Assembly: GCA_965203905.1 (NCBI GenBank) | Contig: CBDBDQ010000005.1 | Span: 3,520,001 to 3,584,000 of the forward strand | Length of the DNA stretch: 64,000 bases | Source: Spirochaetia bacterium | GTDB lineage: Bacteria; Spirochaetota; Spirochaetia; SZUA-6; Bin103 | Direction of reading: 5' to 3' | In this document: positions 32,722-48,020 of the stretch, piece after piece | How the letters are laid out: every line of letters begins with the position of its first letter | Position numbering within the stretch: position 1 is the stretch's first letter | The notes under the pieces: generated by a model | What the model saw: the letters and a program-made list of their open reading frames with translations, nothing else | Told to the model about the DNA's origin: nothing | Databases searched by the model: none | Program-made: the position numbers and the translations under genes

Positions 32722-33564
32722 CTATCGGCCGGAGTGAGGTCCGGCCGCCGAGTGCGCCGAAGCCGGCACCGCAGGGTCGTGGTCGAGTCCGTGCAACCGC
32801 AGCCGGATCAGCAGGTCCTGCAGCGCGGGCCTGGCGCTCGGCTGCGCCGGCAGGTGGGAGGTATCCGCCGCCGCACGCAGTACGCCGACCAGGCGCTCAT
32901 ACTCCGCCGCATGGAATCGCAGATCGGTGGGAGGCAGGTGGTCCTGTTCCGGGCCGGCGACCTTGCGCGCGATCAGTTCGTCGAGGTAGGGCAGCCTGGC
33001 GCTGTCGTTGAGGGTGCGCAGGTTGGCCTCGACCAGGCCCGTCCGCATCAGGTGAATGCCGGTCAGGAGCACGCGATACACGTACAGCAGCGGCTTGATC
33101 CGCGGTGGCTGCTCGCGCTCGAACAGCTTCCACTGCCCGGCGGCGAACCCGCGATAGTGACGCTCGTGACGGCGCGTCACGCAGTCGGCGGCGATCGTCT
33201 TCAACTCCTCGTGCGCCGGCGTGGTGCGCACGATCAGCGGCGAGTGCACCTGCTCCAGCACGTAACCGTTCGGCTTCAGCAGCAGACCGAAGAACTTGCG
33301 CGCGTCGTGGGTCACCAGATCGATCTCCATCGCGGCAAGCTGGTGCGTCGTCTCGACGGTATCGCCGCCGCCGTCGAGACCGATGACGTGCTCCAGCGGC
33401 AGCAGATGGGCGCCGCGCAGATCGCAGTCGGAGTCCGGCGACGGAAACCCGTACAGATGGGCACCGCTGATGGTGACGAACAGCAGTGGATGAGACTGCC
33501 GGTCCACCAGCCGCTGCAAGCCTGCGTCGCCGGTGAGGTCCGCGCCCGGGGCAGGCGGGCTCAC
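32722..33564 (-). CDS. Nucleotidyltransferase, PF10127/YcgL/RlaP-like
   Basis: SGAHLYGFPSPDSDCDLRG, LLLKPNGYVLE, KPLLYVYRVLLTGIHL. Confidence 0.88.
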   Translation of the reverse strand: MSPPAPGADLTGDAGLQRLVDRQSHPLLFVTISGAHLYGFPSPDSDCDLRGAHLLPLEHVIGLDGGGDTVETTHQLAAMEIDLVTHDARKFFGLLLKPNGYVLEQVHSPLIVRTTPAHEELKTIAADCVTRRHERHYRGFAAGQWKLFEREQPPRIKPLLYVYRVLLTGIHLMRTGLVEANLRTLNDSARLPYLDELIARKVAGPEQDHLPPTDLRFHAAEYERLVGVLRAAADTSHLPAQPSARPALQDLLIRLRLHGLDHDPAVPASAHSAAGPHSGR

Positions 33565-34259
33565 GGCAGTCGATCCTCGACCGCGCGCCGGCGGGCGTGG
33601 ATCAGAAACCGGTCGGCGCGCTCGTAGTCGGGCTGCGCCGGCAGGGTGGTGCGCGCCAGAGCGCAGTCGAACTCAGCAGCCAACTCCCTCCGCCACGCGT
33701 CCACCTCCGGCCACCTGGTCCTGCCCGACCTGACGGCAAGCAGACGCTCCCGGTGTTGGCTCACGTCGACGGCGACGAACCCCTCCTGCAGCACCGTGAT
33801 GCCGGACAGCAGCAGTCGCAGTAGGTGCATGGCGTGGCTCCACTTCACCTGGCCGCGGCTGCGCAGCGCGGTCTGCATACGCCGGAACTGAGACTCCACG
33901 TAGCGGGTGTAGGTCTGGTGCACCAGCTTGGAGAGAAAGCATCCCCGCATGGCGAGCAACTCCTCGCCCAGCGGCGTCGCAGTCTCCACCAGCGGTGTGT
34001 AGAGACACTCCAGGATGTTCGGATTGGCTTTCAAGGCGAGCGTAATGAACTTCTGGAGTTCCCAGTACACCTCCTGGGTGGCCTCGTTCTGCAGTTGCGG
34101 CGGCGCTCCCGCCAGCGACCAGTGCAGGTCGGCGGGCGGTAGATACACGCCACGGCGATCGGTGTCGGAGTCCTCCCGGTCAAGTCCATAGGCGCGTGAG
34201 CCGACCACGCAACGGAGGATCACACGCTCGACCAGATCGGTGACAGGGGCATTGCACAT
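33561..34259 (-). CDS. Nucleotidyltransferase, PF10127/RlaP-like
   Basis: VGSRAYGL..DSDTDRRG, ANPNILE, HAMHLLRLL. Confidence 0.88.
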   Translation of the reverse strand: MCNAPVTDLVERVILRCVVGSRAYGLDREDSDTDRRGVYLPPADLHWSLAGAPPQLQNEATQEVYWELQKFITLALKANPNILECLYTPLVETATPLGEELLAMRGCFLSKLVHQTYTRYVESQFRRMQTALRSRGQVKWSHAMHLLRLLLSGITVLQEGFVAVDVSQHRERLLAVRSGRTRWPEVDAWRRELAAEFDCALARTTLPAQPDYERADRFLIHARRRAVEDRLP

Positions 34260-34949: not shown

Positions 34950-35187
34950 GCCGGTGCTGCGATCCGGGCCCTCCAGGTGAAGACTCTTACTTGGTGGTGT
35001 GCGTCCACTCCTCCACCAGCACGTCGGAGGTTTTCCTCGATGAGTAGCTGCCGGAGCGCGGCTTGCGGATCTTCGGATCCAGCTTTCCGATGCGGGTCTC
35101 GAAGCTGCGTTGCCGGTAGCCATTACGACAGTTTACGCGCTCCTCACTGCGTTCATGGCGCGTAATGCCGCACTCCAGCTCCATCAG
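34950..35187 (-). pseudogene. IS256 family transposase, N-terminal fragment
   Basis: RHERSEERVNCRNGYRQRSFETRIGKLD.KI.K.RSGSY. Confidence 0.78.
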
Positions 35188-35214
35188 CGGCTACAACGTG
35201 AACTTCTCCGCTCA

Positions 35215-35532
35215 CCCAAGAAGTGATCCCCAGTATGCTCTTCAGCCAGTTCGATCGGTTCGGGACGTACCCTTCCTGTCCGCGTGATTTCAGCCACTCG
35301 GCGATTGCCGCGGTCTCTTCATCGGTCAAGCGGAGCACACGAATGGTTGGCTTGGCTCCGTCGAATACGGAGACGGTACCAGTTCGCCGGTCGGTGTCCC
35401 ATCCACGTTTTATGTCTCCGGCGGGAGTAGCCGGTCCGCCTGCCGCCGGATCTGATGGGAGGTGCGGTAGTTGACCCGTAGCGTGTGCGAGCACCCGCGG
35501 ATTTCGACTCCCAAGGCGCCAGGAGAACGGGT
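35215..35532 (-). pseudogene. Internal fragment of a UvrD-like helicase paralogous to 39399-41480
   Basis: TDRRTGTVSVFDGAKPTIR..DEETAAIAEWLKSRGQEGY; DNA closely resembles about 39790-40062. Confidence 0.85.
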
Positions 35533-36445: not shown

Positions 36446-36712
36446 CATGCGTCCCTGCAACTTCTTGACGAGGCTCTCCGCTACCGCTACAAGTTCTTTC
36501 GTATTCATGGTATACCTCCCCATGATGTAGTGCTCTGGAGTACGTAGACTTAGTTTTTCTGCGCCAGAATCAACGAATCGCTACCGTCTTAGGCGTTCAC
36601 ACTCAAAAAGAGGACACTTGACCTATCTTGTGAGAATATGATAACATATGGACCATAGTGCAACCTCGTTTGAACAACGACTGAGAACACGGAAACGAGG
36701 TAAGGACTGTTT

Positions 36713-37090
36713 ATGGTACGTATTGGTGCAAGAGTGTGTAGCGGAGATAGCATTAACATAATCGGTAACGGTGATTACCTATTCAAATTCGAGCTTTCGC
36801 TGTCAGGACGAACAACGGAGTGGATTTACAGCAAACCCGAAGAAAACGGAGTGTTGTGTGTCTGCGAGTTGACTGAGGACGACATTCCAGTGGTATTGAA
36901 AGAGTCTGACTATCGGTTTAGAACGGAACCGACTCAGATTCACCTGGACAAATGGGTGTTGTTGAGAAATGTGGCCGGGCACATAGCCGCAATTAGATTG
37001 ACTGCGATTAACGGGAATCGCGACCACACCCATGCGGAGGTCAGGTTTGTTTATGCCATCTTCGAATTGCTTACAAGGGTTGACCGCTAG
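36713..37090 (+). CDS. Hypothetical 125-aa beta-rich protein
   Basis: Low-GC ORF with GAGG/AAGGA upstream; IGNGDYLF..WVLLRNVAGHIAAIRL..EVRFVYAI; 3' end overlaps the convergent 151-aa ORF by 4 bp. Confidence 0.5.
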   Translation: MVRIGARVCSGDSINIIGNGDYLFKFELSLSGRTTEWIYSKPEENGVLCVCELTEDDIPVVLKESDYRFRTEPTQIHLDKWVLLRNVAGHIAAIRLTAINGNRDHTHAEVRFVYAIFELLTRVDR

Positions 37091-37542
37091 GAAGCCCATT
37101 TCGGAATGGGAATTCCGTGCAATCGACATAGTCTGTACTTTCCACGGTCCACAGTCTCGAATTCATTTGTTCGAGAAAAGTATGCGAATATGGCCCCTTC
37201 GGTTCCTAACTGAGCACAGTCGGAGATCATCTTTTTTGCGTATTGTGCGGTAATAGTTCCGTCCGGAGATAGGTTCGCTAGGAAGACTGCTGCTTCACCG
37301 ATGTTCGCCAGCTTCTTCAGAGACTCAATTAGCTCGTTTTCTTTGGCTTCAGCAGTATCGATGGACAGTTGAAGTTGGGCTTGGAACTCCTCTAGACGGC
37401 GTAGGCTATCCGCTAGTTTGTTTCGTTCGGCGTCAAGCGTTTGAAGGGCACTCTTTGTAGCGTGGATATGGGAGATGAAAACTCGGAGCGCGATGCGTTG
37501 CTCCTCAAGACTGACGGATGTGTTTACCAGTGGTGTCACCAT
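37087..37542 (-). CDS. Hypothetical 151-aa protein (coiled coil plus possible winged-helix C-terminus), downstream of the tRNA pair
   Basis: Heptad-rich LQTLDAERNKLADSLRRLEEFQAQLQ; C-terminal FETVDRGKYRL wing-like motif. Confidence 0.62.
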   Translation of the reverse strand: MVTPLVNTSVSLEEQRIALRVFISHIHATKSALQTLDAERNKLADSLRRLEEFQAQLQLSIDTAEAKENELIESLKKLANIGEAAVFLANLSPDGTITAQYAKKMISDCAQLGTEGAIFAYFSRTNEFETVDRGKYRLCRLHGIPIPKWAS

Positions 37543-37623
37543 ACTTGACCTTTTCGCTCAAACGTGTTACATTTGTCAGGCAGCGGGAACGTAGCTGATC
37601 GATATCGTTCGTACTCCAAAGGT

Positions 37624-37707
37624 TGCCGGCGGTGGGAGTTGAACCCACATGCCCCTACAGGCGACCGCTCCCAAAGCGGTTGTGTCTACCAATTCCACCA
37701 CACCGGC
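37624..37707 (-). tRNA. tRNA with Leu-type class II body and TGG (Pro) anticodon
   Basis: GCCGGTG TG GTGG AATTGGTAGA CAC A ACCGC TT-TGG-GA GCGGT CGCCTGTAGGGGCAT GTGGG TTCAACT CCCAC CGCCGGC A; intact cloverleaf, 15-nt variable arm, CCA not encoded. Confidence 0.88.
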
Positions 37708-37713
37708 AGAGAA

Positions 37714-37784
37714 TGGAGAAGACCGGAATCGAACCGGCATCGCAAGATTCGGAGTCAGGCGTGGTACCATTACACTACTTCCCC
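37714..37784 (-). tRNA. tRNA(-like) with G3:U70/A73 (Ala-type) acceptor stem and CCG (Arg) anticodon
   Basis: GGGGAAG TA GTGT AATGGTA CCAC G CCTGA CT-CCG-AA TCTTG CGAT GCCGG TTCGATT CCGGT CTTCTCC A; two mismatches in the anticodon stem. Confidence 0.72.
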
Positions 37785-37796
37785 GCTGTGTTCTAG

Positions 37797-37839
37797 AAAG
37801 GGAGCCTGTGACGTTGCAGCGTTGCGGTGCTCCCTTCTT
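37797..37839. other. Stem-loop between promoter and first tRNA
   Basis: Outer stem AGGGAGC...GCTCCCT; inner arms CTGTGACG/CGTTGCGG pair mainly through G:U on the + strand. Confidence 0.55.
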
Positions 37840-37849
37840 CATGCCCCAA

Positions 37850-37878
37850 AGCGTAATATCAATCCTCACAGTAGGCAA
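37850..37878 (-). promoter_or_regulatory. Sigma70-like promoter for the tRNA cassette
   Basis: Minus strand TTGCCT (37878-37873), 17-bp spacer, TACGCT (37855-37850). Confidence 0.6.
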
Positions 37879-38029
37879 GGGCCGTAGAGAAAAATCTGTG
37901 ATGATGAGCTTACAGGAATCCGAGTGTAGGTGTTAGGTGTTACCTGTCGCAAGGTGGAGCATGACGTAAAGAACCCCGCTGTAGGGGTTTACGGCGGCTG
38001 ATACAGCACCGATACGGTGGTTAGACAAG

Positions 38030-38125
38030 TGTGTTGCTGCGCGGTTTGCAGTTGCGGCAGCGCTTCGGCCCATCGACCATGCAGGTCTGCGGGCGGCAGA
38101 CACACGCCGTGGCGTTCGGTGCCGT
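38030..38125 (-). pseudogene. Short fragment of a PF10127-type nucleotidyltransferase paralogous to 33561-34259
   Basis: RHGVCLPPADLHGRWAEALPQLQ versus RRGVYLPPADLHWSLAGAPPQLQ. Confidence 0.72.
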
Positions 38126-38239
38126 CCCATCGTGCCGGCGGGTCTCGCTGCCAGGGCTGCTCTGATGGGTCAAGACTATGAGGTAAGCGTCCACGCCGCC
38201 ACGCAGCAGGGTGTTCGCCGTCAGTCACAGGTACCGATG

Positions 38240-39398: not shown

Positions 39399-41480
39399 CT
39401 ACGCGTGGGGCGGGTGCCGATGCTCGACAAGTAGGTCGTCGAGGAACTCGGAGGCCGGTTCCACGCCGGTGACCAGGAGATGATCGCGGGCGCGCGTGCA
39501 TGCGACGTAGAGCAGGTGGCGCTCGGTGGTGTAGACCTCGTCGAGCTCGGCCTGATCGCCGACGCGCTCGATTCTCGCTTGCGACGGCAGCACTTCGTCA
39601 TCACACGCGGCGACGACTACGGCCCGAAACTCCAGGCCCTTGGCGAGGTGCATCGTGCCGACTGCGACGTTGCCCGAAACGCCGCCCGCGTGCTGCGCCA
39701 GATCGACCGCCGAATACTCTGCGGCTTCAACGGAGGCGATGGCTCTGTCCAGTTGGCCCTTCGATCGGACGAACACGCCCATCTCGTGCGGGGTGTACCC
39801 TTCCTCTCCGCGTGATCTCAGCCACTCGGCAATTGCGGCTGTCTCTTCATCGGGCGAGGGCGAGATCCGAATGGTTGGCTCGGCTCCGTTGAATACGGAG
39901 ACGGTGCCAGTTCGCCGGTCGGTGTTGCCGTCCACGTCCGAGGTCTCGGGCGGGAGTAGCCGGTCTGCCTGCCGCCGGATCTGATGGGAGGTGCGGTAGT
40001 TGACCCGCAAGGTGTGCGAGCGCCCCCGGATGTCGATCCCCAAGGCGCGCCAGGAGAACGGGGTCTGGAAGATCCGCTGACCGAGGTCACCGGCAAAGAA
40101 CAGGGCATCGGGGCGCCCGGCGCCGAGCGCAGCCAGGAAGCGCAACTCGGCCACCCCGATGTCCTGAGCCTCGTCGACCACGCAGAACTCGAACGGTGGA
40201 CGATCCATCTTCGCGAGCTGACGCTCCAGACATCCGAACAAGCGCGGCTCGGTCAGGAGCGCATGCTCGTCAAGAGCGGCGGCCACCTTGGAGAAGATCG
40301 ACCAGAGGATCTCTCGCTGCCGTTCCGGCAGGCGAGTCCTGCGACCGAGCCGCGGCACGTCCCGGTACTGTTCCCAGCTTGCAAGCTGCCAGGCATCGAC
40401 CACTCGGCTCCACTCGGTCCAGAGGAAGCGCAAGCTGAACCGGACGTCTCCAACCTTGGCGGCGGCTTGGCGCAACAGCTCGCGCACGCGATCCGGGGTT
40501 GCCAGATCGGGGCGGCCGAAATGTGCCTGGTAGAGGCGCCGCCCGATGTCGGCCATTGCGTGCACCTCCAGCCGCTCGCCGATCTTCGGCTCGTTGGCGA
40601 TGAGTCGCACCACTCGCGCCCGCAACGCATCCGCGAGTGCCGGGGAGAACGTGGTCAGCAGCACGCGCGCGTCCGGATGGGAACGGGCCAGATGCACCGC
40701 TCGGTGCAGCGCCACGATGGTCTTGCCGGTTCCGGCGGATCCTGACACCCGGGCCGGGCCGCGGTAGCTCCGCTCCACTACCTGCCGCTGAGCGGGATGC
40801 AGAAAGACCGTCCACTTCTCCCATGGATACTCAAGCGCCCGTCGCAACTCCTCCTGGTTGGACATGACTCGAAAACGGCGTTGAGCATCGGGATGGGCAA
40901 ATGGATCTCCATCCGTGGCTCCGGGGTCAGGCCGCACCGGTGTGCTCCCGGTAGCAAGCTCCAGCAGCACCTCGGCGGCCTCTGCGGGAAGATGATCCGC
41001 CAGGGCCAGGAGCGCGTCCTCGTCGGCTACCTGCCTGACGTCATCCAGCCACTCGCCGGGCACTCCGTACGCCAACAACTGACTGTCCGCGACGCCGGCG
41101 AACAGGGCGCGTTCGGCAGCGACGTAACGCGGGATCTCGACCTTGCGCACCACTTCGCGGACTTCGACGAGTTGCGCCGCACCGGTGTGGGGATGCTGTT
41201 CGAGGCGCCGGCGTTCCGCCCAGCGATACGCATCGTCGTGCTCTCCGACGTAACAGAGCAGGAGATTGGCCGCCGTCTTGTGCACGATCATGCGGACGCC
41301 GCGATTGACCCGAACCGACCAGAAATTCTTGTCCCTTGCCCGCTCCACCCGATGGAACTGCATCCCCGGCTGTGCCGGATTGAGTTGCAGATCGAATGCC
41401 GTCGTTTTGGCGGCGCGCTGCTCCTCGCCAGGCAGCTTCGCCAGGCTATCCGCAAACGTGTCGGCTATACGGAATTCCAC
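39399..41480 (-). CDS. UvrD/REP-like SF1 helicase with N-terminal RelE-like domain
   Basis: N-terminal FADSLAKL..FWSVRVNRGVRMIVH..YVGEHDDAY; GSAGTGKT; VVDEAQD; HLAKGLEF; LYVACTRAR. Confidence 0.9.
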   Translation of the reverse strand: MEFRIADTFADSLAKLPGEEQRAAKTTAFDLQLNPAQPGMQFHRVERARDKNFWSVRVNRGVRMIVHKTAANLLLCYVGEHDDAYRWAERRRLEQHPHTGAAQLVEVREVVRKVEIPRYVAAERALFAGVADSQLLAYGVPGEWLDDVRQVADEDALLALADHLPAEAAEVLLELATGSTPVRPDPGATDGDPFAHPDAQRRFRVMSNQEELRRALEYPWEKWTVFLHPAQRQVVERSYRGPARVSGSAGTGKTIVALHRAVHLARSHPDARVLLTTFSPALADALRARVVRLIANEPKIGERLEVHAMADIGRRLYQAHFGRPDLATPDRVRELLRQAAAKVGDVRFSLRFLWTEWSRVVDAWQLASWEQYRDVPRLGRRTRLPERQREILWSIFSKVAAALDEHALLTEPRLFGCLERQLAKMDRPPFEFCVVDEAQDIGVAELRFLAALGAGRPDALFFAGDLGQRIFQTPFSWRALGIDIRGRSHTLRVNYRTSHQIRRQADRLLPPETSDVDGNTDRRTGTVSVFNGAEPTIRISPSPDEETAAIAEWLRSRGEEGYTPHEMGVFVRSKGQLDRAIASVEAAEYSAVDLAQHAGGVSGNVAVGTMHLAKGLEFRAVVVAACDDEVLPSQARIERVGDQAELDEVYTTERHLLYVACTRARDHLLVTGVEPASEFLDDLLVEHRHPPHA

Positions 41481-41540
41481 GTCAGCCCTGGTTGTGCCTT
41501 GAAGGGGAAGCTGCGTCGAGAACGGGATCCCGATGTCATT

Positions 41541-44042
41541 TCAGAAATCTGCTGCGACGGTGGTTGCGACTCGATTCGCCACCTCCGCATAGAGATCGAC
41601 ATCGACTTCCGGTGCCCTGATGCTGACAACTAGGGAGTACCGGGCGGCCCGGTCGTAGCGTTCGAGACGCGTACGGGTCTTCCACCATCCCAGCGCAGGA
41701 TAGGCGGCGATACATGCGCGGCTAGCGAGATCAGCGGCGGTTCCACGCCAGATGTCGCTATGGAGGGAACCGCGATGGCGCGCCTGCTTGCCTATCAACC
41801 AATGAGGATCCTCGCCGCTTTGACTGGTTCCCTGCTCTTCGTCGCGCGCGGCGGAGTTTATCCTGGCCCTGAACTCGTCGACGGACTCGTAGGGGCGTTT
41901 GACATCGAAACGGAGACCGTGGGACTCGTAACGGTAGCGGGAACGCCCTCGTTGCGACGGGTTCGGCTCGATGAAGTAGGAGAGTGTGACACGCATCTCC
42001 ACCTCCGTGTCGCCGAGTGATTCCAATGTATCCTGCGGCCAAGGGAGATTATGTAGGTGCATATCGCGGAGCGTGGCTTGTTTGCCTGTCTCTCGCTTGA
42101 AGGGATGCAGGATTTCTTGAACCACCATCGTCAGCGAATTCGCGACGCTCCACAGAGCCCGGTCAAGGTTCGGCACGCCATACCCGCAGCGCCGGACCAG
42201 ACGCCTGTAGTCAGCCTTCTTCGGTTGTGTATTGGTGGGTAAATAGGCACTCCTCATGGCATCAGTCCACTCCGTCGAATGAACGACCAGAGCGCGAATC
42301 GTCTCGGGCCAGAGCGCCGGATATGCGGTCATCAATTGGGCTGACAGGCGTGCAGCCAACGCTGCGGCTGCACTGGTCGCATTTGAAGTAGTAAGCAGGT
42401 TCACCGTCGGGCGATGATGTGTGGTCAGAAGGCTCAGGCTGGGAAGGGAAACCGCGCTCAAACTGTCCTTAGCTGCATTGCCGCCTTCAAGGACTATGTC
42501 CGGCTTCAGCGGCCATTGTGGCGGCCACGTCAGCGAAGTCGTGCTGAACGGGCTCAGACCTCCTCTCGGTGCGATCGACTCATAATCGTCACAGTCGGGG
42601 TCGGTAATCCGTACTCGCTCCGTGTACGCTCCGACGGTCAGCGCGTTCCATGCCTGTGCGGGGTCATGAACGCCGTCAGAATCGTTGCTGTGCGGGTAGC
42701 GAGACCAAGCGTTGGGATCGTCGACGTTACCAGCCGATATGACGAGCAGGCGTGGGTCAGCGCCGTCACCATAGCTATCTGCGGCGAGAGCGTCGACGGC
42801 CGCTGACCAAGCCGACGGACGGCCTCGGTCACGGTCATCACGTGCGGTGACCGCCATTACAAAGACCCGCAACCTATTCGGTGCGGTAACTTCAGGCCGC
42901 GTAACCGCCTGCACCGTGAGATACCCATGGTGTTGTGGATCGGTTCCCCCGCTGCGTCCCTGTGGCAGAAGCTTGACCGACTCTAGCCGGTGGCTCACGT
43001 CCACGTGGGAGCTGCCTGCGAGAAGGTTGGTCAAGTCTCCGGCGAGGGCCAAACCCGCCATCTCCGTACCGTGCCCATTGCTATCTCCAACGCCCCACGC
43101 CGGTTCGACAGTGTGTAGATCGTTCGCAGCAAGCGCGTTCCTGAGCATCGGATGGCCTCGAGTCACGCCGGTATCCAGGATGCACACGTGCGCTATCTCC
43201 GCGGCGTCTTCGGCGAAGGAAGTTCGGGCAAGTAGATCGTCAATCCATTCGTACTGTTCTTCCTGCGGAAGCGAATCGAAGAACTCGGCCGTTTCCTTGG
43301 CACGCCGCAGCTCCGCAACACTGTTCAACGTGAGCATGGACCGTTCCATCTGTTCGACGGATGCCAATACATGCAGTACCGTGCGCTCAGGAAAGCTCAA
43401 CTCACCCGGTGCCACGCGCATGTCCTGCGCTTCCGCAAGATTGCGGAATGTGCCGACGGTTTCGTTTCTGTCCCGCCGAATGGGCAGCCAGACTTCCCAC
43501 CATATTGGTCTTTCCCGTTCCGACGGGAAAGCATCCAGGTCCGTCCATAGCGCTCGAAGGCTTGCGGCACGAATCTCCCGAATTGCGTTGATCAGCCGCT
43601 TGTGGTCAAGAGATCGCCCGATGCGGTCCTGTTTTTCCGCCAAGTAGTCTTCGACAAGGCCTTGGAAGTGAGTGAGCTTCCCATCGGGAACGAATACCGT
43701 GGCGTAGGTTCGACCTTGGTGGTGGCGGACATTCAACAACTCGATGCCGGAGCGGTCCCGTGCCAGGCTCTCGAATGCAAGCTCGATGTCAGGGAAGCTC
43801 TCAAACTCGATCCGAAGTCCGAATCCCTCTTCGAGCCCTGCGTCCTGTTGCGCTACGCGAGCCGCCTCGGCCTCGGACTGAAGCTCCCCAAGCTGCCGCA
43901 TCAAGCCTGCCCCATGCCTCTGGCGGTCGCGCGCCGGGATGGTAGGCCGGCCGCCTCCTTCCTGCGGAGAGCGATATGGCTCAACCTCGGTGACGCCCTC
44001 CAGGATAAAGTGCCGACTTCTCTCCTCCGTCCCGTTTGCCAT
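41541..44042 (-). CDS. ietS: S8 subtilisin-like peptidase, IetS-type
   Basis: ILDTGV, HGTEMAG, ISAGN, NALTVGA, KPDIVLEGGN, ATSAA, GYGVP; directly downstream of an AAA ATPase. Confidence 0.85.
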   Translation of the reverse strand: MANGTEERSRHFILEGVTEVEPYRSPQEGGGRPTIPARDRQRHGAGLMRQLGELQSEAEAARVAQQDAGLEEGFGLRIEFESFPDIELAFESLARDRSGIELLNVRHHQGRTYATVFVPDGKLTHFQGLVEDYLAEKQDRIGRSLDHKRLINAIREIRAASLRALWTDLDAFPSERERPIWWEVWLPIRRDRNETVGTFRNLAEAQDMRVAPGELSFPERTVLHVLASVEQMERSMLTLNSVAELRRAKETAEFFDSLPQEEQYEWIDDLLARTSFAEDAAEIAHVCILDTGVTRGHPMLRNALAANDLHTVEPAWGVGDSNGHGTEMAGLALAGDLTNLLAGSSHVDVSHRLESVKLLPQGRSGGTDPQHHGYLTVQAVTRPEVTAPNRLRVFVMAVTARDDRDRGRPSAWSAAVDALAADSYGDGADPRLLVISAGNVDDPNAWSRYPHSNDSDGVHDPAQAWNALTVGAYTERVRITDPDCDDYESIAPRGGLSPFSTTSLTWPPQWPLKPDIVLEGGNAAKDSLSAVSLPSLSLLTTHHRPTVNLLTTSNATSAAAALAARLSAQLMTAYPALWPETIRALVVHSTEWTDAMRSAYLPTNTQPKKADYRRLVRRCGYGVPNLDRALWSVANSLTMVVQEILHPFKRETGKQATLRDMHLHNLPWPQDTLESLGDTEVEMRVTLSYFIEPNPSQRGRSRYRYESHGLRFDVKRPYESVDEFRARINSAARDEEQGTSQSGEDPHWLIGKQARHRGSLHSDIWRGTAADLASRACIAAYPALGWWKTRTRLERYDRAARYSLVVSIRAPEVDVDLYAEVANRVATTVAADF

Positions 44043-44051
44043 GGATTGTGC

Positions 44052-45041
44052 TCAGGTGGTCAGGCGGGTGGCGATGCTGCGGCGTTCTTCGAGCATCGCG
44101 GTGATCTTTGCTTCTCCGACGAGCCCCGACTTGGAGTTGATCAGCGCATCCTTCAAGGCTTCGTCAGCGGCGCGCGAGATGTCGGCGTGACTCAGCCCTG
44201 TCGCGGTGGCAGCCAGCCGACTCCATGAGACACTCGTGACTACGGTTCGGGCCAGGCGCGTCTTCAGCAGCTCTGCGATCTGAGCCTCATCGGGCATGTC
44301 GTAGTGGAGTACGTCGTCGAACCGTCGAAAGAGCGCGGGATCGAGAATCTCGAAGTGATTGGTTGCGGCGATCACAAGGCTGTAGGAGCGTTCCTGTTCG
44401 ATCATCTGGAGAAAGCTGTTCAGCACTCGGCGGATCTCGCCCACATCGTTGGTGAGGCCACGTTGCGAGCCGATGGCGTCGAACTCGTCGAAGAAGTACA
44501 CGCCTCGCATGCGGCTCGTGGAGTCGAACACCTGTCGAAGCCGTGCGGCGGTCTCTCCCATGTATTTGGTGATCAGCCCGTCCAGGCGTACCTGCAGCAG
44601 CGCGAGCCCGAGTTCGGCTGCCAGCACTGACGCGGTCATCGTCTTGCCGGTGCCCGGGGGACCGACCAGGAGGAGCTTGCTCCGGGGGACGAGGCCCTGC
44701 TCGATGATGCGCCCGGCATGGCGCTGCTCGCGGATCACGCGCTCTATCTGCTGCGCAAGGGGATTGCTCAGGATCATTTGACGGAGGCGGGCTTTCGGGT
44801 ACGAAGTCTCCAGGAGGCTTGCTGAAGCTCCGTGCGGTCGGTCTGCCGACACGTGTCCGAGCGGCCGTGGGGGACGTCCATTCTTGGCCTCGTCTACCAG
44901 AGCCCGCAACTCGACGGCGAGCTTGCCATGCCCGAGCTTGGCCTCATGCGCCGCCACCTGCATGGCGACCGAGAGGAATCGCTCGTCGTCGCCCTTGATG
45001 TGCGACCTGAGCAGCGCCTTGATCTGTTCAGCGCTGGCCAT
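44052..45041 (-). CDS. ietA: AAA+ ATPase, IetA-type
   Basis: GPPGTGKT, KYMGET, FFDEFDAIG, AATNH..LDPALFRRFD. Confidence 0.87.
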   Translation of the reverse strand: MASAEQIKALLRSHIKGDDERFLSVAMQVAAHEAKLGHGKLAVELRALVDEAKNGRPPRPLGHVSADRPHGASASLLETSYPKARLRQMILSNPLAQQIERVIREQRHAGRIIEQGLVPRSKLLLVGPPGTGKTMTASVLAAELGLALLQVRLDGLITKYMGETAARLRQVFDSTSRMRGVYFFDEFDAIGSQRGLTNDVGEIRRVLNSFLQMIEQERSYSLVIAATNHFEILDPALFRRFDDVLHYDMPDEAQIAELLKTRLARTVVTSVSWSRLAATATGLSHADISRAADEALKDALINSKSGLVGEAKITAMLEERRSIATRLTT

Positions 45042-45071
45042 AGGGCATTTTGTACTGTTGCGCCGCTATGC

Positions 45072-48020
45072 TCAAACGCGGAACACCTTCATTACCTCGT
45101 CGCCGAGGTGGTTGATGACCTTGACGGCGATGCGGCCGGAGGCCGGGCGGTCGAAGGGGCGGGAGGTGGCGCTGTGCAGGGTCTCCCACGCGTCACGGTG
45201 GATCTCGGCCTTGAGGGTGGTCTTGAGCGCTTTGTAGGGGTCGCTGGCGCCGAGGAAGTAGGCGTGGCGGACGAAGAAGCTCTCCTCGTTGTAGTCGGTG
45301 TCGACGAACCAGCAGGCGATGCCGTCGGGACCGTCGCTGCGGATTTCGCCGGTATTGGGATGGAACACGTCCACCCCGTTGACCTTGACCTGGATCTGGC
45401 CCGGCTTAGCCCCGTTGTCCTGGACCGGGATGATCTCGATGTCGGGCTCGCCGAAGATCACGAACAAGTTGCCCTTGCCGGTGTTCTTCAGGTCGCCGGC
45501 CATGTGCAGGTCGGCGTTCATACGCGCCTTGAGGACCGGGATGCGGCCGAGCTTGCTGAACTCGGACGCGTGCGCCTCGTAGCTGAACGCGCAGGCGACC
45601 AGGACGTCGAAGTCGGCATCAGCGGCTTCGCGGGCGGCAGCGACCAGATCGGGGCGGGTAACGGTGCCGAACTCGGGGCCGATGAAGATGCCCGCGCGGC
45701 GCTCGATCCCGGTGTCCGCATCACCTTCGATGTAGCGTCCTTCGGCGCCGATCAGATCGCCCGGCCAAGGGCTGAGGACGTTGAAGGAGATTCGATCCTC
45801 GCGGTGCGCCTGCTGCACGCCGGAGGTCTTCAGGTGCTCCAGGATCATGGTCGCGAAGTCCTGCTGCTCGCCGTAGCCGGTCTTGTTCTCGGCAAGATGG
45901 TCGATCAGCTTGTCATTCTCGTCGACGCCGAGTGTGCGGTGGGGCGCAAGGCTCTCCACCGTGAACGGGCCGGCGACGCGGACGACTCCACGATCCTCGT
46001 ACGGCTTGTCGTACAGGTACTCGAAGTCCGCCTTGGCGGCGATGGAGGCATCGATCTCCTCCTGTCGCGCAATGCGCGCTTCCCACCAGCGGCGGTGCAG
46101 TTCGGTCGGTGCAGCTTCCCACGGGTCGTGCGGCTCGTCGGGGACCTCCTCAGGCGTGTAGGTGCGGCCGAGAACGTTATTCAGTTCCAGCAGAGCCGTC
46201 CTTTTCTCCGCGTCGGAGTGGGCGGACTGGAGTTGCCTCCACGCGGCTGCAGCCGTCTCAGGCCACGGGTCCCCAGCCTCCCGAGGGATCTCCCACTCCT
46301 CCCACGCACGGCCCAATACATCGTTCAGTTCCTCCTGCAGCGGCTCCAGTGTGTCCTGCCACCGTTCCCATATCACGTCGATCTCGACGTTGTTAGCGAT
46401 CGACTTCAGGGTGATGTGCGGCACCCGCTCGTATACGAAACCCTGCCGGACGTCGTCGCCTGTGGGGCTGTCGGACGGCACGGTCTGGGTGAGCTCCGCT
46501 TCCTTCTGCCGTCCCGCCGGGCTGTCGGCGAGCAGGTAGTAGGGATAGCGCGCCGCCATGATGCGGGAACGAGCCAGTGCCAGCGCTACGCGGGACGTGT
46601 CGATGGTGATCCAGCGCCGTCCCCATTGTTCGGCTACATACGCGGTGGTACCAGAGCCGCAGGTCGGGTCCAGCACCAAGTCGCCGGGGTCGGTGGTCAT
46701 CAGGATGCAACGTTGGACAACCGAACGGTTCGTCTGGACAACATAAACGTTTGGATCAGCGAAACCAGACGTAATAGTATCAACCCAGAGATTCGAGTGA
46801 GGGAATATGCGAAAGTCATCCAAGAATCGAACATATCGGAGCGTACTTCCAATAAAGATCATGCGCTTCGCGTGTGCGATACGCCTCAGTCCGTCCGCAT
46901 CTGTTTTGAAAGTACCCTTGTTCACATAAAATGACTTCCCTTCGAATGTGAAGTCGCGAACGTCATCGCCCTGTGCCGGTCTTTGGCTGGTAATGTTGTC
47001 ATGAGCAAATACTTTCAACGAATCTTGTTTGATGCTCGACGCCTCCCAATCTACTAATGTTGCACGCGTACCTGACGCATCCTCACCAAAATTGTATTGG
47101 GTAGCGCCAGTGCCTCTGGGCTGCTTAATCTGGAATTGCGGTCGATATTTTGGTGTTGTTGATTTACTGAACCAAAGCAGCAGATCGAAAACTCCCGAAA
47201 GTGCTTCTGACGACGTGGAGGAGGTCTTCTGAAATACAATCTCTGAAACGAAGTTATCCTTTCCGAAGACTTCGTCCAACAGAGCGCGGACCAAATGGAC
47301 ATTCTCATCGCCGATCTGAACGAAGATGCTGCCGCTCTCCGTGAGCAGGTCTCGGGCCACCGTCAACCGGTCGCGCAGGTACGTGAGATACGAGTGGATG
47401 CCGTCACGCCATGTGTCGCGGAAGGCCTTGACCTGCTCGGGCTCGCGCGTGATGTGCTCGGCTTTGCCGTCCCTCACGTCGCGGCTCGTGGTGGACCACT
47501 GGAAGTTGGAGTTGAACTTGATGCCGTAGGGCGGGTCGATGTAGATGCATTGTACCTTGCCGCGCAGCCCTTCGCGTTCGGCGAGCGAGGCCATCACCTG
47601 CAGGCTGTCGCCGAGGATCATGCGGTTGGACCAGTTGGCGTCGTGGCGGTAGAACTCCGTTCGGGCGTTGTCGTCCGGCAGCCCGTTGAAGTCCGAGAAC
47701 AGGTCGAGCTGGTCGTCAGCCGCTTGCTCTCCTTCCTTGCTGCGGCGTAGCAGGTCGTCGATCAGCACCTTCGGATGGACCTTCTCCTGGATGAACAGCG
47801 GCGGCGCCTGCACCACGAGGTCGGACCAGTCCTGTTCGTCCTTGCCGCGCCACACGAGCTGCGGGTCGAGGTCTCGGTTACGGCGCCCATACGCCACCCG
47901 GATGGGGCTCTGATCGGCCTTCTCCATCACCGACTGATACTCCGCCGTGGGAATGTTCCTGCGCGACGCCTCGTCGTGCGTAATGGTATCGACGGTCTTG
48001 GTCTTTCTTCGTTTCGCCAT
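45072..48020 (-). CDS. mod: Type III restriction-modification methyltransferase (Mod, N6-adenine)
   Basis: YIDPPYG, LVLDPTCGSGTT, IAVKVINHLGDEV; res gene upstream. Confidence 0.9.
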   Translation of the reverse strand: MAKRRKTKTVDTITHDEASRRNIPTAEYQSVMEKADQSPIRVAYGRRNRDLDPQLVWRGKDEQDWSDLVVQAPPLFIQEKVHPKVLIDDLLRRSKEGEQAADDQLDLFSDFNGLPDDNARTEFYRHDANWSNRMILGDSLQVMASLAEREGLRGKVQCIYIDPPYGIKFNSNFQWSTTSRDVRDGKAEHITREPEQVKAFRDTWRDGIHSYLTYLRDRLTVARDLLTESGSIFVQIGDENVHLVRALLDEVFGKDNFVSEIVFQKTSSTSSEALSGVFDLLLWFSKSTTPKYRPQFQIKQPRGTGATQYNFGEDASGTRATLVDWEASSIKQDSLKVFAHDNITSQRPAQGDDVRDFTFEGKSFYVNKGTFKTDADGLRRIAHAKRMIFIGSTLRYVRFLDDFRIFPHSNLWVDTITSGFADPNVYVVQTNRSVVQRCILMTTDPGDLVLDPTCGSGTTAYVAEQWGRRWITIDTSRVALALARSRIMAARYPYYLLADSPAGRQKEAELTQTVPSDSPTGDDVRQGFVYERVPHITLKSIANNVEIDVIWERWQDTLEPLQEELNDVLGRAWEEWEIPREAGDPWPETAAAAWRQLQSAHSDAEKRTALLELNNVLGRTYTPEEVPDEPHDPWEAAPTELHRRWWEARIARQEEIDASIAAKADFEYLYDKPYEDRGVVRVAGPFTVESLAPHRTLGVDENDKLIDHLAENKTGYGEQQDFATMILEHLKTSGVQQAHREDRISFNVLSPWPGDLIGAEGRYIEGDADTGIERRAGIFIGPEFGTVTRPDLVAAAREAADADFDVLVACAFSYEAHASEFSKLGRIPVLKARMNADLHMAGDLKNTGKGNLFVIFGEPDIEIIPVQDNGAKPGQIQVKVNGVDVFHPNTGEIRSDGPDGIACWFVDTDYNEESFFVRHAYFLGASDPYKALKTTLKAEIHRDAWETLHSATSRPFDRPASGRIAVKVINHLGDEVMKVFRV

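Follow-up and report, generated by a model that had tools for sequence, protein, structure and literature searches.

A leucine-shaped tRNA with a proline anticodon in a spirochaete genome and its transposase-linked relatives in other phyla

The odd tRNA gene and the tRNA set of its host

The stretch of DNA analysed here, called the window throughout, is 64,000 nt long (G000:C5:3520001-3584000) and belongs to a spirochaete genome of 7.99 Mb and 66% GC. On its minus strand, at 37624..37707, lies an 84-nt gene, recognised by both Rfam (RF00005) and ARAGORN, for a class-II, leucine-shaped tRNA that carries the proline anticodon UGG (hereafter the odd tRNA); a second tRNA gene and two open reading frames (ORFs) accompany it in a low-GC insert. 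The Rfam match reached 55.0 bits (gathering threshold 29, E 5.3e-11) over model positions 1-71 with no non-standard pair marked, on a par with the 46-58 bits of the host's own class-II tRNAs, and ARAGORN called a tRNA-Pro with anticodon tgg at 37621-37708 (-). In the minus-strand reading, the 5' half is GCCGGTG / TG / GTGG-AATTGGTAGA-CAC / A / ACCGC-TTTGGGA-GCGGT, and the 3' half consists of the variable arm CGCCTGTAGGGGCAT followed by GTGGG-TTCAACT-CCCAC / CGCCGGC / A. All seven acceptor pairs (one of them a T6-G67 wobble), five anticodon pairs and five T-stem pairs are formed, the conserved U8, A14, G18G19, U33, T-loop and A73 are present, and the variable arm of 15 nt has a GCC/GGC stem and ends with U48. 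Downstream of A73 the DNA reads ACC, the CCA end not being encoded; just 14 of the 52 tRNA genes of the host genome encode CCA. The anticodon TGG occupies 37671..37673 (-), with the middle base G35 at 37672, as counted along the minus strand from 37707. The first-pass annotation of this DNA had described the G1-C72 pair, A73, the same D-loop, a 15-nt variable arm, a TT-TGG-GA loop and an anticodon at 37673-37671, all of which were recovered by the minus-strand reading, Rfam and ARAGORN.

No letter differs between the window tRNA gene and the contigs of runs X1, X2 and X3, an agreement that concerns contigs and not raw reads and comes from a single study, X1 and X2 representing one sample, possibly the source of the assembly, and X3 a second sample, whose record 6 spans 37225-37729. 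The same annotation had named base 37672 as the one to check, and its letter is the same in the contigs of both samples. That this base is wrong through sequencing or assembly, the true anticodon being TAG, is hardly credible, given the identical letters in two samples, the presence in the host of a Leu(TAG) with a different body (40/61 core positions in common) and the dozens of independent relatives with TGG, CGG or GGG at the same place; the second-sample contigs and the relatives bearing the same anticodon rule a sequencing error out. The odd tRNA is thus confirmed as a real and intact gene.

Canonical host tRNAs were found by ARAGORN for Pro (TGG, CGG, GGG) and for Leu (TAG, GAG, CAG, CAA, TAA) and, this set being complete, the odd tRNA is supernumerary. 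A canonical Pro(UGG) co-occurs with an odd tRNA also in genomes G017, G094, G093, G095, G096 and G097. No genome was shown to have the odd tRNA as its sole UGG decoder: a canonical UGG tRNA was missing from the search of G098, where the tRNA set (36 matches) is also without Asp and Gln tRNAs and is therefore incomplete. The anticodon loop TTTGGGA matches that of the host canonical tRNA-Pro(TGG) letter for letter, and differs at one base from the host Leu(TAG) loop, TTTAGGA. The single A35G difference from a Leu(TAG) loop, as first annotated, thus holds for the loop; with only 40 of 61 core positions in common with the host Leu(TAG), the odd tRNA as a whole is not a fresh point mutant of it. 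Other parts of the body agree fully with host leucine tRNAs, namely the D-arm with those of Leu(TAA) and Leu(GAG) (19/19 positions) and the acceptor stem with that of Leu(CAA) (14/14). CCG is the commonest proline codon of the host genome (per 1000 codons, CCG 36.4, CCA 3.6; CGG 26.3).

The determinants of the E. coli leucyl-tRNA synthetase (LeuRS), as listed in PMC9976931, are A73, the A15:U48 Levitt pair, G18G19 and A20a, the anticodon being irrelevant. The odd tRNA has them all, with the U8:A14 pair too, and LeuRS would therefore be expected to charge it with leucine; no LeuRS anti-determinant separating odd from canonical Leu tRNAs was seen in the comparison. What departs from a tRNA-Leu is the anticodon UGG, which is neither NAG nor YAA. 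For the bacterial prolyl-tRNA synthetase (ProRS) the same source lists G35, G36, G37 and A73, and also G72 and G15:C48, the first four of which are found in the odd tRNA. The C1-G72 pair, given in the first-pass annotation as typical of bacterial tRNA-Pro with G72 as a ProRS determinant, was seen in 8/8 canonical Pro tRNAs aligned, and the canonical Pro tRNAs of the host all combine it with A73. The archaeal-type Pro set in PMC9976931 comprises A73, G1-C72, G2-C71, G3-C70, G35 and G36, with an enzyme that relies mainly on G35/G36; the odd tRNA has A73, G1-C72, G35 and G36 but C-G at pairs 2-71 and 3-70.

The host genome encodes one LeuRS (G000:C5:3270863-3273325) and both ProRS types, a bacterial-type enzyme (TIGR00409, G000:C5:368911-370605) and an archaeal/eukaryal-like one (TIGR00408, G000:C5:4467114-4468607), each above the curated cut-off. 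Among genomes of the same taxonomic family the archaeal/eukaryal-like ProRS is found in 21/23 and the bacterial type in 19/23, and the odd tRNA in G000 and G017 only. Both types being common in the family, the ProRS pair is not tied to the odd tRNA, and a bond between the latter and the second ProRS was ruled out.

The tRNA family, its transposase neighbours and their proline codons

Similar tRNAs were found in about 35 other genomes from at least 10 phyla, and in viral contigs. In one-genome-per-species GTDB contigs, a narrow pattern made of the D-arm and TTTGGRA retrieved 5 loci, and a relaxed one retrieved 101 stretches plus 7 stretches of viral contigs, which together with the locus of G017 (L002) gave 109 matches for parsing. 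About 25 of the 109 are complete cloverleaves with A73, a long arm and UGG, most of them above the Rfam threshold; they derive from Chloroflexota, Pseudomonadota, Acidobacteriota, Planctomycetota, Verrucomicrobiota, Gemmatimonadota, Actinomycetota, Krumholzibacteriota and viral contigs. The anticodons of the family are mostly UGG, and also CGG and GGG.

An alignment of 17 short-arm members (the window copy and 16 relatives) has 98.0% of its cells paired, a figure inflated because rows were picked for good stems; not so inflated are the compensatory changes, 18 of 23 pairs having changed at both positions. Neither 500 shuffles nor slid registers came near these values. A14, A15, G18, G19, U48 and A73 are invariant in the 17 members, U48 and A73 lying outside the search pattern. 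The 31-39 pair of the family is C-G as in Pro tRNAs, the canonical Leu tRNAs having A-U, and position 37 is A in 12 of the 17 members and G in all the canonical Pro tRNAs aligned. When the canonical Leu tRNAs of six host genomes were included in a tree, the odd tRNAs clustered, with 5 label changes where shuffling gave 16 on average (0/500 shuffles as low), and a single clade of odd tRNAs is permitted (p-AU 0.64, from 66 columns with few forks resolved).

Among 60 relatives of the host, only G017, from another genus of the same family, has a counterpart, an 86-nt Leu-shaped tRNA(UGG) whose acceptor and anticodon stems are different and which is likewise followed by a small ORF. Between G000 and G017 the canonical Leu genes differ little or not at all, whereas the two odd tRNAs agree at only 46/61 core positions and do not group as sisters in the tree, a pattern at odds with vertical descent at the rate of the canonical genes.

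Many matches of the relaxed pattern are not members, being either chance matches in coding DNA or alphaproteobacterial tRNA-Leu(UAA) genes with an insert. The latter have, after U34, a conserved sequence of the 'AAATTCGGGGA' type (L041, L063, L072, L073, L091, L092, L096, L116, L120, L039, L087 and others), and these inserts look like the known group I introns of tRNA-Leu(UAA). A separate subgroup (L037, L047, L050, L051, L090, L101, L104, L108, L128, L185, L201) has a variable arm of about 29-35 nt, in which an apparent outer stem surrounds a small inner hairpin and a bulge of 4-6 nt; ARAGORN mostly missed its members.

In 18 of 29 family loci a gene for an IS1595-type transposase (PF12762 + PF12760) lies within 3.5 kb of the tRNA, and in 3 further loci, G017 included, an IS1-like gene does. 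The linked transposase has 290-400 aa with the IS1595 zinc-ribbon and DDE domains, and its gene usually runs convergently to the tRNA, with 30-150 nt between the stop codon and the 3' end of the tRNA; L118 and L053 are examples of complete units in which the transposase is intact. A second, anticodon-blind route led to the same association: when the 80 best relatives of the transposase were searched with a covariance model of the family, 10 loci had a Leu-shaped tRNA above 60 bits, with the anticodons UGG (6), CGG (1), GGG (1), CCU (1) and a true UAG (1). Proline anticodons thus account for 8 of the 9 mismatched tRNAs, and all 9 retain A73, A14-A15 and U48, with D-loops that vary. The unit of tRNA and transposase is single-copy in G096 and G093, and no convincing terminal inverted repeats were found around it in 6 loci. 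On these genomic associations the family is judged to be mobile, multi-phylum and transposase-linked.

The transposase genes next to UGG tRNAs also differ in their proline codons. CCA and CCG make up 76.6% of these codons, against 58.8% in the flanking ORFs (n=23, paired p=3.3e-5), whereas 65 transposase relatives without a tRNA have 54% against 57% (p=0.53); since the elements are related, such p-values overstate independence. CCU falls to 4.7% in the tRNA-linked genes, and among eight four-codon boxes compared the proline shift is the largest and the sole strong one. It is seen in both locus sets, positive in 12/15 loci from the tRNA pattern and in 6/6 from the transposase route, and none of 20000 label permutations equals it. 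In two proline columns conserved throughout these transposases, CCA or CCG accounts for 37 of 41 codons. In the alignment, the prolines coded by CCA/CCG line up with P, A, G and K of the relatives and not with L, which rules out a recoding in which proline codons would mean leucine in the transposase; P in the tRNA-linked group stands against L, T or P in the others at a single, variable C-terminal column. The counts at single loci (the window ORFs, G017 and the CGG, GGG and CCU loci) are too small to read, and the window copy itself has no transposase for such a comparison.

Efficient insertion of leucine by the neighbouring tRNA should select against CCA/CCG, and delivery of proline should select for them. 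An enrichment that includes conserved prolines is therefore hard to reconcile with an efficient Pro-to-Leu substitution, and proline or dual charging becomes a serious rival to pure leucine charging, as far as codon and identity-element comparisons can indicate. The first-pass annotation had proposed a tRNA charged with Leu that reads CCA/CCG as Leu; the Leu body, the Pro anticodon and the complete LeuRS set speak for that proposal, and the codons of the linked transposases against it. For the relief of polyproline stalls, which it had also suggested, the analysis found evidence in neither direction.

Companion genes and genomic surroundings

Both tRNA genes and both ORFs lie in a low-GC insert of 1.57 kb (36603..38174, no strand assigned; 51.1% GC against 66% for the genome). 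The insert has no DNA match at E<=1e-10 in 5 congeners, while both flanks match, one of them with the RlaP genes, an antitoxin-like ORF and transposase-related repeats, the other with an HpcH-type aldolase and a UvrD-type helicase; transposase-related repeated DNA forms its left border and the HpcH-type aldolase gene its right border. Judged by composition and by this distribution, the odd tRNA is a foreign, horizontally acquired gene.

The partner tRNA, of class I, 71 nt long and with anticodon CCG, lies at 37714..37784 (-), 6 nt upstream of the odd tRNA (Rfam 56.0 bits; ARAGORN Arg-ccg). Its anticodon offers the arginyl-tRNA synthetase the bases C35 and G36. Its acceptor end has G1-C72, G2-C71, G3-U70, G4-C69 and A73, an alanine-type set: for the alanyl-tRNA synthetase (AlaRS), PMC9976931 gives G3:U70 with A73, G2-C71 and G4-C69, and G20 as a minor element, against which position 20 of the partner is U. 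Its function is made doubtful by two anticodon-stem mismatches, where Rfam marks non-standard pairs. A canonical Arg(CCG) is encoded elsewhere in the host (C5:4938272-4938345). A scan for the partner D-arm with CCG returned 20 other stretches, none with G3:U70 and A73; 11 are complete cloverleaves with A1-U72 and G73, 4 of them from genomes labelled Absconditabacterales or SR1.

Further mismatched tRNAs accompany the family elsewhere. Class-I tRNAs with an Arg-like D-arm and the anticodon GCU, a reader of serine codons, stand beside Leu-shaped tRNAs in L101 (6873-6946), L118 (6329-6402) and L194 (5112-5185), all on the minus strand and two of them with C33. At L080 1965-2048 (-) a second Leu-shaped tRNA with A73 and the anticodon UGA (serine codon UCA) directly follows the UGG member, and at L194 5488-5575 (-) a Leu-shaped tRNA with A73 carries CCU (arginine codon AGG). 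Class-I tRNAs with UGG, G1-C72, U73 and an unusual D-arm were found at L225 4395-4471 (-) and L202 4433-4508 (-), 40-51 nt past the stop of an IS1595-type transposase gene, that is, another body with the same anticodon in the same position.

The 151-aa ORF (37087..37542, -) lies 82 nt downstream of the odd tRNA on the same strand. The N-terminal half of the product is coiled-coil-like and the C-terminal part has the motif 'DRGKYRL'; it has no match in Pfam or PHROG, no convincing PADLOC family and Atlas leads all below 0.9. A weak homologue occupies the same position after the G017 tRNA (BLASTP E 4e-5, 20% identity over 120 aa), and with the 151-aa ORF as query only the window's own genome of the 92 of the order was retrieved, the other 91 giving none. 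The ORF is a possible partner or regulator of the tRNA. The 125-aa ORF (36713..37090, +), of uncertain gene status, is convergent with it, overlaps it by 4 nt and matches no family in Pfam, PHROG or PADLOC.

By its predicted gene content, the wider region is a defence and mobile island, with IetA/IetS, a type III methyltransferase, a GajB-like helicase, two RlaP nucleotidyltransferases and a Mutator-type transposase fragment around the tRNA. The defence genes span 39399-48020 and comprise a GajB/UvrD-like helicase (39399-41480), the IetS subtilase (41541-44042), the IetA ATPase (44052-45041) and the type III methyltransferase of 982 aa (45072-48020). A fragment at 35153-35494 resembles the C-terminus of the helicase. 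The two RlaP-family genes (PF10127, of an RNA-repair pathway) adjoin each other at 32722-34259 (-), are conserved in congeners and are separated from the tRNAs by a transposase fragment.

Outside the window, at G000:C5:4211301-4211376, ARAGORN called a 'tRNA-Stop(tta)' (Rfam 43.6 bits), which appears to be a degenerated tRNA-Arg(TCG) copy in which the anticodon loop is enlarged. A decayed IS1595-like transposase gene (C5:4214149-4214918) faces it in convergent orientation at a distance of 2.8 kb.

Possible functions and comparison with known systems

The reading that we prefer, tentatively and with rather less than even confidence, is that of a mobile accessory tRNA of hybrid identity, which would read CCA and CCG and deliver leucine and proline as a mixture in an unspecified ratio. 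It builds on the observed gene, its intact fold and foreign origin, the family, the transposase link and the codon coupling; expression, processing, charging and decoding are steps that we infer. The odd tRNA would be co-transcribed with the partner 6 nt upstream, excised by the normal tRNA-processing enzymes and provided with its CCA end by the CCA-adding enzyme. LeuRS would then charge it through the full determinant set and ProRS through its strongest determinants, G35, G36, G37 and A73, and it would compete with the host tRNA-Pro(UGG) and tRNA-Pro(CGG) at CCA/CCG codons, giving mixed Leu/Pro there.

Several points weigh against a mixed charging of this kind. Towards the bacterial ProRS the odd tRNA is without G72, G15:C48 and a short variable loop, having G1-C72, A15:U48 and a 15-nt arm instead, and towards the archaeal-type enzyme its pairs 2-71 and 3-70 are C-G; the long variable arm may hinder a class II ProRS. 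In the class-II tRNAs with foreign anticodons tested so far, natural or engineered, it is the body that decides the amino acid, an analogy which favours pure leucine charging here too. The codon coupling is a correlation across related elements, and the flanking ORFs used as controls include spurious frames. As to the window copy itself, it sits among decayed transposase fragments, neither an IS1595-type nor an IS1-like gene was found within 3.5 kb, and no tblastn match in the window was better than E 0.02; these observations, with the mismatches of the partner tRNA, are the reason why it could be a stranded relic. A consensus scan of the minus strand upstream of the tRNAs found no sigma-70-like promoter and no terminator, although such a scan is no evidence either way.

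A real possibility, though one that on balance we doubt, is that LeuRS alone charges the tRNA and leucine is inserted at CCA and CCG. Expression could then be kept low or limited to certain conditions, CCG being the commonest proline codon in the genome, and a mobile or defence element could use the tRNA as a weapon or a stress device. The complete LeuRS set occurs without variation, the anticodon plays no part for LeuRS (PMC9976931), and the bacterial ProRS determinants G72 and G15:C48 are missing. Precedents agree with such an outcome: the nev-tRNAs of nematodes took leucine only (PMC3333845), allo-tRNAs of Ser identity mistranslate, arrest the growth of E. coli and occur near toxin-antitoxin genes or transposons (PMC5389517), and an engineered tRNALeu(UGG) impairs yeast growth (PMC11028032). 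The companions resemble a miscoding set, with an alanine-type partner bearing CCG in the window, GCU in L101, L118 and L194, UGA in L080 and CCU in L194, the locus lies within a defence island (IetA/IetS, type III methyltransferase, GajB-like helicase), and the codons at stake amount to 36.4 (CCG) and 3.6 (CCA) per 1000. Yet a leucine-inserting neighbour would damage the linked transposases, which are enriched in CCA/CCG, up to 37/41 at conserved prolines, and whose CCA/CCG prolines align with P, A, G and K and not with L. Most family copies, moreover, are structurally intact, which is unexpected for a harmful gene, and in vivo mistranslation by nev-tRNAs is reported as undetected in nematodes (PMC4300185).

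The opposite outcome, a helper tRNA charged by ProRS through G35, G36, G37 and A73 and little by LeuRS, which would boost the decoding of the CCA/CCG-rich genes of its element in the manner of phage and plasmid tRNAs, we regard as rather unlikely. It would explain a codon coupling that is specific to the proline box, appears in both locus sets and extends to conserved prolines, and it agrees with the C31-G39 pair, the loop identical to that of the host tRNA-Pro(UGG), the two ProRS types of the genome and the intact state of the family copies. The proline anticodons of 8/9 mismatched tRNAs in the anticodon-blind set also point to it, although this excess could reflect descent from one ancestor. 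Against it, nothing was seen in the tRNA that would exclude LeuRS, the long variable arm and the lack of G72 and G15:C48 are unlike bacterial tRNA-Pro, A37 in 12/17 members departs from the G37 of the aligned canonical Pro tRNAs, and no genome was shown to depend on an odd tRNA as its only UGG decoder.

It is more doubtful still that the family is real and the window copy a silent or unused leftover of a decayed mobile element. Such a fate would suit the lack of an IS1595 transposase within 3.5 kb and the four decayed IS1595-like copies found in the host genome elsewhere than at the window locus, as well as the Mutator-type transposase and helicase fragments nearby, the two anticodon-stem mismatches of the partner and the failure of the consensus scan to find a promoter. 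The tRNA itself, on the other hand, is without decay, with all stems paired and U8, A14, G18G19, U33, the T-loop and A73 in place, it scores as the host class-II tRNAs do (55 against 46-58 bits), and G017 retains the same arrangement of tRNA and small ORF.

Beyond the hybrid-identity reading of the odd tRNA, it is conceivable, if doubtful, that a subgroup of IS1595-type elements carries a private decoder tRNA to which the transposase is codon-adapted, so as to couple its own output to the tRNA or to impose a Pro/Leu ambiguity on host CCA/CCG codons; with the partners, Ser/Arg and Arg/Ala ambiguities might be added. If this were true, the family would represent a transposon-borne modifier of the genetic code that spreads between phyla. 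Were leucine inserted, about 4% of host codons (CCA + CCG = 40 per 1000) would be at risk. Natural tRNAs with mismatched body and anticodon are raw material for genetic-code change and for programmed mistranslation, and the family poses two questions, namely whether ProRS can override a complete LeuRS set and whether a transposon can profit from its own decoder.

The tRNAs of phages and other mobile elements are matched to the codon usage of the element, and their body normally fits the anticodon. The window family resembles them in being an accessory tRNA on an element with neighbour codons shifted to those read, and differs in that body and anticodon do not fit. Bacterial families with such a mismatch are few, those named in PMC11415595 being tRNAProX, the allo-tRNAs and tRNASec/Cys hybrids. 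A literature search, conducted outside paper supplements, found no description of a family with a Leu body and a Pro anticodon, and the term tRNALeuUGG and its variants matched only the engineered-yeast paper; judged by titles and abstracts, no report of an IS1595 element with a tRNA passenger was found either. Within the reach of that search, the Leu-shaped, proline-anticodon, mobile tRNAs are a previously undescribed family.

Its closest counterparts in structure are the nev-tRNAs, conserved and supernumerary class-II tRNAs of nematodes, derived from tRNA-Leu and charged with Leu only in vitro (PMC3333845, PMC4300185). They share with the odd tRNA the class-II, Leu-type body, an anticodon that fits neither Leu nor Ser, the supernumerary status and the leucine expected from identity rules. 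As described there, they are eukaryotic and nematode-specific, have Gly (CCC) or Ile (UAU) anticodons and are not on mobile elements, whereas the window family is bacterial and viral, has proline anticodons, is linked to transposases and shows codon coupling with a neighbouring gene.

The allo-tRNAs (Mukai et al. 2017, PMC5389517) combine an 8/4 or 9/3 arrangement of acceptor and T stem with a tRNASec-like shape and D-arm; their identity is Ser or Ala, their anticodons number about 35, and some are translationally active in E. coli. Like the window family they are rare and bacterial, combine mismatched body and anticodon, and occur near toxin-antitoxin or transposon-related genes, sometimes in polycistrons. 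The window tRNA differs from them in its 7/5 arrangement (7-bp acceptor, 5-bp T stem), its Leu-type D-arm and a family with nearly all proline anticodons. The main text of PMC5389517 contains no 'tRNALeu', 'LeuRS' or 'UGG'; its supplements list many irregular tRNAs and could hold members of the family.

Proline is also involved in the tRNAProX of Streptomyces and Kitasatospora (PMC11415595), which, like the window family, are natural bacterial tRNAs of hybrid identity: they join a Pro body to Ala, Asn or Thr anticodons, have A33 and A34 and are encoded alongside a dedicated ProRS paralogue, ProRSx. The window tRNA is their mirror image, with a Leu-type body, UGG and U33 kept; no synthetase gene is among its neighbours, the two ProRS of the host being lineage-wide features. 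The very combination of body and anticodon seen in the window exists as a man-made, eukaryotic tRNALeu(UGG), which in yeast misincorporates leucine at proline codons and strongly inhibits growth (PMC11028032). Unlike this growth-inhibiting construct, the natural bacterial family appears to be tolerated and conserved.

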